Virus record (IMG/VR): IMGVR_UViG_3300017917_003521
Origin: a virus
Taxonomy: Duplodnaviria > Heunggongvirae > Uroviricota > Caudoviricetes
Length of the DNA: 61,745 bases
Strand: one strand, 5' to 3'
Part shown: in pieces, positions 59,969 through 60,076 of the stretch
Position numbering within the stretch: the stretch's first letter is position 1
How the letters are laid out: every line of letters begins with the position of its first letter
Made by a program: the position numbers and the translations under genes
The notes under the pieces: generated by a model
Told to the model about the DNA's origin: nothing
Seen by the model: the letters and a program-made list of their open reading frames with translations, nothing else
Database searches by the model: none

Positions 59969-60013
59969 ATGATGTAGATTAACACATATAGAATCTTAGA
60001 AAGACCTCCGTAA
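59969..60013 (+). CDS. Leader peptide with in-frame amber: MM*INTYRILERPP
   Basis: ATG ATG TAG ATT AAC ACA TAT AGA ATC TTA GAA AGA CCT CCG TAA; AATATATA upstream at ~59945. Confidence 0.65.
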
Positions 60014-60076
60014 TAGGTTCTTACCGACCAGCTAAATAGCACTCGGTTAGAACTTATTATGGAGGATTTTTATTTT
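60005..60076 (+). terminator. Attenuator/terminator-like hairpin overlapping the end of the leader peptide
   Basis: 60005-60027 pairs with 60043-60065 (22 bp, 2 G-U, 1 mismatch), followed by ATTTTTATTTT. Confidence 0.8.

Follow-up and report, generated by a model that had tools for sequence, protein, structure and literature searches.

A candidate transcription attenuator with an amber codon in its leader peptide, upstream of a Pth2-like gene in a phage genome fragment

We analysed a stretch of 61,745 nucleotides (nt) of DNA from a virus of the Caudoviricetes (IMG/VR record IMGVR_UViG_3300017917_003521), hereafter the window, and in it a short leader upstream of a gene whose predicted protein resembles peptidyl-tRNA hydrolases of the Pth2 family. 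The leader combines an upstream open reading frame (uORF), interrupted by TAG at its third codon, with a long hairpin and a U-rich tract, and the uORF ends inside the 5' arm of the hairpin. An earlier note on this DNA had interpreted the arrangement as an attenuator that measures stop-codon readthrough. Each of the comparative checks that it named came out favourable, which supports this interpretation as far as sequences can; a refinement is likewise supported, in which the agent of readthrough would be a phage-encoded tRNA with anticodon CUA, tRNA(CUA), so that the device would measure suppressor activity competing with release factor 1 (RF1). We therefore propose, with a probability of roughly 0.6, that the leader is a ribosome-mediated transcription attenuator and that its inducer is amber suppression by the phage tRNA(CUA). 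The anatomy of the leader, its conservation, its reading frame, the covariation of its hairpin and the linkage of the gate to the tRNA are established by the comparisons that follow.

Direct reading of the sequence confirmed the positions first assigned to the uORF, the hairpin and the U-tract (Table 1). Two ATG codons (59969-71 and 59972-74) are followed by TAG (59975-77), then by ATT AAC ACA TAT AGA ATC TTA GAA AGA, and finally by CCT (60005-07), CCG (60008-10) and TAA (60011-13); with UAG read, the peptide would be M-M-*-I-N-T-Y-R-I-L-E-R-P-P-stop. CCT CCG TAA forms the first nine bases of the hairpin. RNAfold reproduced the stem of 22 base pairs (bp), made up of 17 + 5 bp, together with a 3-bp apical helix and a single U/U mismatch; the U-rich tract follows the hairpin. 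By itself the hairpin has a folding free energy (dG) of -34 kcal/mol; its z-score against dinucleotide shuffles is -7.1 (173 nt) or -8.4 (136 nt), none of 200 shuffles being as stable. Two G-U pairs of the stem become C-A mismatches on the minus strand, where the stem falls into 5-bp pieces, and the fold is thus specific to the plus strand, as had been claimed. A hairpin based on CCTCC...GGAGG and followed by a T-tract occurs once in the whole window. The 19 ordinary terminator-like hairpins of the window span 16-43 nt (mostly 16-24) with dG values of -9 to -13, and the leader hairpin is about three times longer. The window has a GC content of 29.5% and lacks Shine-Dalgarno (SD) sequences; its nearest relatives are LR745206 and LR756502, uncultured phage genomes of 635-642 kb.

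Table 1. Position and nature of the leader elements, the genes behind them and the CUA tRNA in the window
Feature	Position	Strand	Description
Leader uORF	59969-60013	+	ATG ATG TAG (59975-77), 11 sense codons ending CCT CCG, TAA
Promoter-like box	59944-59952	+	CAATATATA, 16 nt 5' of the leader ATG; putative promoter
Long hairpin	60005-60065	+	5' arm 60005-60027, 3' arm 60043-60065 ending GGAGG
A + U-tract	60066-60076	+	A66, then TTTTTATTTT (60067-60076), abutting the 3' side of the stem; presumed release site
Odd-shaped tRNA	54592-54671	+	Anticodon CUA (54632-54634); proposed trans-acting inducer reading three UAGs
Pth2-like gene	60100-60462	+	Opens ATG AAA AAC TAG (60109-11) ATT
231-aa gene, no family match	60446-61141	+	Ordinary ATG start, ungated; overlaps the end of the Pth2-like gene
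HD-domain gene	61146-61733	+	Opens ATG TTG TAG (61152-54) ATT

We collected 35 distinct homologous leaders from phage contigs; a pattern scan of IMG/VR found no contigs beyond those in this set. ATG-x-TAG-ATT, a long hairpin and a U-tract are common to all 35. The TAG is invariant, no hairpin was found without a uORF, and the start reads ATG-ATG-TAG-ATT save for one ATG-ATT-TAG and one ATG-AAC-TAG. The stem base is nearly invariant as well, with CCTCC-N-TAA on its 5' side and TTA-N-GGAGG on its 3' side, and so is ATTTTTATTTTAAAC after the stem. The stretch after the TAG runs for 11, 12 or 13 codons, always in frame, and encodes peptides as different as INTYRILERPP, ILTYNFVVVRPP, INTYYNFVVVPP, IFTYYSFVVVDPP, ILTYNNLKVKPP, IVNSDLILKPP, IFKISNITKPP and others. 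Among 21 distinct spacers between TAG and CCTCC, all are multiples of three (27, 30 or 33 nt), and the uORF frame is free of stops within them, whereas the other two frames contain 29 and 37. The geometry is equally constrained: the stem base lies 25-32 nt past the TAG, and the uORF stop falls 5-8 nt into the 5' arm in 33 of the 35 leaders.

Pro-Pro-stop closes the open frame in 33 of the 35 leaders, the stop being TAA except for one TGA. It had been suggested that the leader ends in Arg-Pro-Pro and resembles arrest motifs of the RAPP/RAGP type. The window does end in E-R-P-P and Pro-Pro-stop is kept in the relatives; the residue before it, however, may be R, K, N, D or V (GRPP, DRPP, VRPP, VKPP, TKPP, LKPP, VNPP, VDPP and VVPP all occur). 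None of these ends fits RAPP or RAGP, and the likeness to such motifs had to be given up.

The hairpins of the relatives span 55-93 nt, with 22-35 bp and dG values of -24 to -46, and a U-tract abuts each of them. Their stem interiors are unrelated in at least nine lineages, all of which still fold, and in the alignable subset RNAalifold identified compensatory changes in 11 of 21 pairs. Covariation, for which the earlier note had asked, thus indicates that the structure of the hairpin is conserved rather than its sequence. All relatives have a GC-rich stem base with CCUCC/GGAGG followed by AUUUUUAUUUU, the sequence signature of an intrinsic terminator. The gene upstream of the leader differs in at least 10 ways, and the leader remains with the Pth2-like gene. 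The leader uORF stands between the box at 59944-59952 and the Pth2-like gene, and no promoter-like box lies between the hairpin and this gene; where the leader is absent, relatives carry the box immediately 5' of the Pth2 mini-ORF (open reading frame). Folding of the transcript as far as the hairpin loop, done for 11 lineages, revealed nothing conserved that pairs with the 5' arm; an alternative antiterminator hairpin of the trp type is thus missing. The ribosome itself must then mask the 5' arm, and the element, if it is an attenuator, falls in the occlusion subtype represented by pyrBI.

Two further structural details of the leader were noticed. A small AU-rich hairpin is predicted in most leaders (59969-59989 in the window), in which AUGAUGU pairs with ACA(C)AU and UAG-AUU lies in the loop; it could explain the conserved Thr-Tyr codons (ACA TAT) after the gate and could modulate initiation. 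The lower stem (60005-60013 / 60057-60065) reads CCUCCUUAA / UUAAGGAGG in most leaders and CCUCCGUAA / UUAUGGAGG in the window itself. Its consensus equals the 3' tail of 16S rRNA (anti-SD) paired with a perfect SD, in a phage whose genes otherwise lack SD sequences; this may be a by-product of Pro-Pro-stop or may have a second function.

The leader's TAG-ATT recurs unchanged in the gates that open the Pth2-like and HD genes. Past its TAG, the Pth2-like frame has no ATG, GTG or TTG start over 86 codons. ATG-(few codons)-TAG before a long open frame is found at only three homologous sites in the window and in the complete 635-kb LR745206, and we therefore discarded the idea of a genome-wide amber gate; TAGATTA is not enriched as a genome-wide motif either (25 copies, 30 expected). 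We then surveyed 110 Pth2-like loci from IMG/VR and metagenomes, and 66 HD homologues whose 5' end is present. ATG-(1-6 codons)-TAG opens 108 of the former and all of the latter, and TAA or TGA is never used (174 of 174 gates are TAG). The next codon in the 108 Pth2-like gates is ATT (96), GTA (6), ATA (3), GTT, AAC or ACA (1 each); in the HD gates it is ATT in 58 of 66 and ATA or ATC in others, with one of GTA, GTT, AAC or ACA in 4 loci. It thus encodes Ile or Val in nearly all gates of both genes. The peptide past the TAG (I-[ST]-K-E-E-L…) is kept between phages of different host phyla with synonymous changes, which implies translation of this stretch. Val, Asn and Thr codons also follow the TAG, and together with its exclusive use they argue for decoding of UAG and not for reinitiation at AUU.

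The genome is not recoded: TAG ends 3 of the 74 ORFs of the window, reading it as sense meaningfully lengthens only the two gated genes, and the window thus does not qualify as a TAG-recoded phage (genetic code 15). Ribosome hopping (AAY…AAY across TAG-ATT) was also considered and set aside; it suits some sequences but neither the window nor the TTG-TAG-ATT-GAC group. A TAG-containing N-terminal 'extension' of the gene at 22392-23408 turned out to be just a promoter box before an ordinary ATG.

The label 'Pth2-like' is justified for the predicted protein of the first regulated gene. It matches Pfam PTH2 (PF01981; E 8.5e-4, 20 bits against a cut-off of 23), TIGR00283 (E 1.8e-4, 21.8 bits against a cut-off of 82) and the PDB profile 2zv3 (E 1.4e-3). 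Its AlphaFold model has a predicted local distance difference test score (pLDDT) of 70, and the top Foldseek matches of this model are all Pth2 structures, with TM of only 0.42-0.49. The HD protein matches Pfam HD (E 2e-4) and phrog_14850 (E 3e-63); this last profile also spans the Pth2-like part, and phrog_14850 thus represents a fused form.

Decoding of such a gate would call for a tRNA that reads UAG, and the window encodes a candidate (Table 1). Its GC content is 60%, its acceptor stem has 7 bp, its T-loop reads GGUUCAAAUCC and its anticodon loop C-U-CUA-A-A; a Bacteroidota-type TAnnTTTG box precedes it. ARAGORN at its defaults calls no tRNA at all in the window and none with anticodon CUA in LR745206, and relaxed settings are swamped by noise. 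The odd tRNAs were detected through GC islands, Rfam and a pattern made of anticodon loop, T-loop and acceptor stem. The counterpart in LR745206 (507340-507420; in our numbering L028 7340-7420) scores best on the Rfam tRNA-Sec model (28.5 bits) and has the same type of box; it shows a 6-bp D-stem-like helix. LR745206 also carries tRNA arrays in which ARAGORN calls two tRNA-like genes with irregular anticodon loops, '(gtag)' and '(gt)' (407364-407437 and 419836-419923).

Including that of the window, we found 35 distinct tRNA(CUA) genes with full acceptor stems upstream of Pth2-like genes on the same strand. The commonest type beside these genes is an 'odd' tRNA of ~80 nt with the 5' motif G-N-G-A/G-G-U-A-G-A-A/G-U-C-U-U-A-A; a minority are canonical, of 71-74 nt. 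The strongest evidence on the reader of UAG came from leaderless relatives, in which the 'structured element' directly 5' of the Pth2 gate is this CUA tRNA, often 17-45 nt from the promoter-like box and gate. Among 48 leaderless loci with enough flank, it lies at most 250 nt upstream in at least 24 and within 1.45 kb in 10 more; the same pattern on the reverse complement gave 0 of 81. Adjacency on the same strand makes the gate and the suppressor a linked module. By contrast, only three of 33 leader-bearing loci have a tRNA(CUA) within these distances, near in one and far in two. The leader thus appears to occur mainly where the tRNA is not adjacent, and this near-exclusivity is the pattern expected if the leader replaces co-transcription with the tRNA. 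A 'DUF2693 RNA' match in one relative, L037 (23 bits, cut-off 81), was dismissed because it overlaps the CUA tRNA of that locus.

The gate is also found in cultured phages. In Tenacibaculum phage pT24 (LC168164.1; L038 ~893-1845 and L149 1521-2479), ATG AAA TAG ATA opens a fused Pth2-HD frame that GenBank annotates (BPT24_235) from an internal ATG only. In the stretch scanned, ~1.7-2.6 kb upstream of this gate, the only tRNAs that ARAGORN reports are a tRNA(CUA) and two tRNA-Ile(UAU), exactly the readers of both codons of the TAG-ATA gate. Ralstonia phage RsoM2USA (MG752970.1; L039 1250-1300) has an SD placed for a mini-ORF, ATG AAA TCG TAG ATC, in front of the HD gene ORF91; Xanthomonas phage XacN1 (AP018399.1; L154 686-700) likewise has an SD placed for a mini-ORF, ATG AAG TAG ACC, in front of the HD gene ORF364. 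The CUA tRNAs of pT24 and RsoM2USA are canonical (65 and 63 bits). Two CUA tRNAs were reported in XacN1, whose authors searched behind terminal stop codons and could not identify the targets (PMC5852040); the RsoM2USA paper suggests 'several potential genes' and names no specific target (PMC8504454). A gated HD gene in both phages bears on the question of these targets. The gate itself is found at codon 3-4, in a start that had been mis-annotated, and not behind the terminal stops where the XacN1 search was made. In the Rak2-like phages, such as Cronobacter phage GAP32 (JN882285.1; L155 686-1252), the HD homologue starts with an ordinary ATG but is divided into two annotated coding sequences by an internal TAG that lies in frame near codon 47; the same '(x2)' annotation is also seen in the phages CBB, BF, fHe-Yen9 and pEa_SNUABM. 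This internal TAG may be another form of amber gate.

The following working model would account for these features. Transcription would start just upstream of 59969 and a ribosome would load at ATG-ATG, with UAG as its third codon. Four steps of the model are inferred: decoding of UAG by the tRNA, termination at the hairpin, coupling of transcription to translation, and a ribosomal pause at Pro-Pro-stop. Without active suppressor, RF1 would release a dipeptide while the ribosome covers the RNA up to ~59987 only; the 22-bp hairpin would fold as its 3' arm emerges, and RNA polymerase would terminate in the U-tract. With charged tRNA(CUA), UAG would be decoded and 11 further codons translated. 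The ribosome would then come to rest 6 nt into the 5' arm, its A site on UAA (60011-13) and its E and P sites occupied by Pro-Pro. Ribosomes cover ~12-15 nt 3' of the P site, and ~16-19 of the 23 nt of the arm (roughly 60005-60020/23) would thus be held in the ribosome. The stem base is the part that matters for intrinsic termination; here it would be blocked next to the U-tract, much as a ribosome occludes the terminator of the pyrBI attenuator, and polymerase would proceed into the Pth2-like, 231-aa and HD genes. Hayes, Bose and Sauer reportedly found in 2002 that C-terminal Pro-Pro slows peptide release, as it would do here, and the length of the hairpin would buy the ribosome one to two seconds to arrive. 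Two of the three genes of the operon would then need tRNA(CUA) again, at their own codon-3/4 UAG. In leaderless relatives, the same coupling would be obtained through a tRNA gene placed directly upstream.

Several points weigh against this attenuator. Its hairpin, with its great length and large loop, is unlike a typical intrinsic terminator, and a simple terminator scan with a loop limit of 8 nt misses it. A terminator would not require the degree of invariance seen in the lower stem and the ATTTTTATTTTAAAC tract, which leaves room for another reader, a protein or a ribosome. The Pro-Pro is inseparable from the CCUCC/GGAGG pairing constraint, and the L042/L043 lineage has no in-frame Pro-Pro-stop, its uORF extending ~70 nt into the hairpin, which makes Pro-Pro-stop dispensable. 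The tRNA(CUA) of the window scores 20.9 bits in Rfam (E 0.056), under the gathering threshold. The attenuator also presupposes a polymerase that is coupled to ribosomes and a tRNA that is charged. Finally, RNase III cuts duplexes of 22 bp or more. The amber input could thus be the same and the output post-transcriptional, the duplex being an RNase III, processing or stability element, or a binding site, that a parked ribosome protects. Indeed, the 22-35 bp of the relatives match the length that RNase III needs, the invariance of the lower stem and flanking tract goes past structural need, and the size of the hairpin sets it apart from the ordinary terminators of the window. RNase III, however, would not need a U-tract abutting a GC-rich stem base, the intrinsic-termination signature of all 35 leaders, and the stem interiors hold bulges and mismatches that vary freely; we consider a post-transcriptional output unlikely.

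The other alternatives concern the amber codon itself. The leader might sense RF1 capacity, or near-cognate readthrough in general, low RF1 inducing a Pth2-like rescue enzyme in a manner reminiscent of prfB. UAG is the RF1-specific stop and the gate is always UAG, the regulated gene resembles a peptidyl-tRNA hydrolase, and suppression is in any case in competition with RF1. Near-cognate readthrough, on the other hand, is normally too rare for the first ribosome to occlude a terminator, and the occurrence of tRNA(CUA) genes speaks against a sensor of this kind: one is present in the same genome, at least 34 of the 48 leaderless relatives carry one at most 1.45 kb upstream on the same strand, pT24 and RsoM2USA each have one and XacN1 has two (PMC5852040). 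The odds of this explanation are accordingly poor. A case can also be made that the uORF is irrelevant, the hairpin acting as a constitutive leaky terminator, an insulator or the 3' end of a small RNA (sRNA), and ATG-ATG-TAG being a start-stop mini-ORF or the relic of a duplicated gene start: a promoter-like box, an RNA of ~110 nt and a hairpin with U-tract are also the layout of an sRNA gene, and the peptide between TAG and Pro-Pro is poorly conserved. A mere relic would hardly keep its frame over three spacer lengths, end inside the stem base and never exchange its TAG for another stop or a sense codon, and the operon would lack a promoter-like box of its own between the hairpin and the Pth2 start; we judge this very improbable. 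Least in keeping with the data is termination at UAG followed by reinitiation on the adjacent AUU, for example under control sensitive to initiation factor 3 (IF3), to which we give next to no credence. ATT, ATA and ATC, possible weak starts, do follow most gates, yet GTA, GTT, AAC or ACA does so in 9 Pth2-like and 4 HD loci and ACC in XacN1, which looks like conservation of Ile/Val and not of a start codon. Moreover, reinitiation needs no preference for TAG over TAA or TGA, and it leaves the linked tRNA(CUA) unexplained.

The proposed attenuator combines traits of several known systems. It comes closest to pyrBI of E. coli, where a short leader ORF also runs into an intrinsic terminator, no antiterminator exists, and a ribosome close behind polymerase blocks the hairpin, so that expression is ON when the ribosome keeps up. 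The signal in pyrBI, however, is UTP-dependent pausing of polymerase, whereas in the phage leader it would be decoding of UAG at codon 3; moreover, the pyrBI leader runs through its hairpin, whereas that of the phage ends in the 5' arm with Pro-Pro-stop. Like the trp, his, phe, thr and ilv attenuators, the phage leader has a leader peptide, a terminator and structural genes in this order, and regulatory codons that would report one charged tRNA. Those systems use sense codons and alternative 2:3/3:4 hairpins, and scarcity of the tRNA turns them ON; here the codon is a stop, alternative hairpins are not conserved, and expression would turn ON when the tRNA is present. In tnaC, too, a ribosome held at the leader stop with a C-terminal proline (Arg-Pro-stop) prevents termination downstream, but termination there is Rho-dependent and the arrest needs free tryptophan and a conserved nascent peptide of 24 residues, whereas intrinsic termination is proposed here and only Pro-Pro is conserved. 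An early in-frame stop that weighs termination against alternative decoding is also found in prfB (RF2), a purely translational device that senses RF2 itself through a +1 frameshift at UGA. T-box riboswitches share the principle that one specific tRNA sets the choice between terminator and antiterminator; in these, it is the tRNA itself that contacts the leader RNA, and ribosomes play no part. Last, in recoded phages (Lak, crAss-like, Agate and others; bioRxiv 10.1101/2021.08.26.457843) a suppressor tRNA expressed from standard-code genes unlocks genes that contain stops. These phages have hundreds of in-frame stops across late and lysis genes; the phage studied here has three UAGs, at codon 3-4 in one operon, keeps TAG as a terminator and would add a transcriptional layer. 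Words starting with 'attenuat' or 'N-termin' are absent from that preprint by Borges et al. (bioRxiv 10.1101/2021.08.26.457843).

A full-text literature search returned no description of amber-gated Pth2 or HD genes or of a suppressor-sensing attenuator. If correct, the mechanism would be a new version of leader-peptide attenuation, a natural attenuator in which the regulatory codon is a stop codon and the inducer a suppressor tRNA. It would provide a 'private codon' for one operon without recoding of the genome, and its compactness (~110 nt) makes it a possible tRNA-inducible switch. As a reason for a Pth2-like cargo, the most interesting possibility is a feedback that acts on the suppressor or on ribosomes held up at stop codons. 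A closed feedback circuit, a 'suppression homeostat', could then be formed by the CUA tRNA together with the attenuator and both amber-gated genes, although we regard this extension as speculative and probably wrong. The Pth2-like hydrolase and its HD partner, which are fused in some phages, may have as their target the suppressor in its aminoacyl- or peptidyl-tRNA form, or else ribosomes that wait at UAG or Pro-Pro-stop. Such an operon would both measure and set UAG suppression in the infected cell, and a phage with the standard code could thereby retain a suppressor tRNA and avoid readthrough across its genome. It would also give the 'orphan' suppressor tRNAs of jumbo phages their long-sought function and could be a stepping stone to full TAG recoding.

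Some minor observations concern the leader and its surroundings. An Rfam search of the leader gave nothing above noise, neither a T-box nor another family, and the resemblance of TGTTGTAGAT to a Cas12a repeat was rejected because the stem is absent. In one close relative (IMGVR_UViG_3300032236_001530; L040 1420-1445), 13 nt are inserted into the apical hairpin loop, which then reads GCUGAUGAGAGCGAGC; this loop includes the hammerhead-core-like word CUGAUGAG, probably by chance. Exact TAATATATA boxes occur 19 times in the window, mostly a few to ~25 nt upstream of ORF starts on the matching strand (for example at 12809, 14999, 16126, 16228, 18751, 22075, 23374, 24526, 44199, 44855 and 46466); once one mismatch is allowed, the motif shows no overall enrichment in the window. 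Boxes so near to start codons imply very short 5' untranslated regions for this class of putative promoters. As to the 231-aa gene between the two gated genes, no match to it was found in Pfam, PHROGs or NCBIfam. It is swapped for a different gene in L037 and seems to be a variable passenger of the module.

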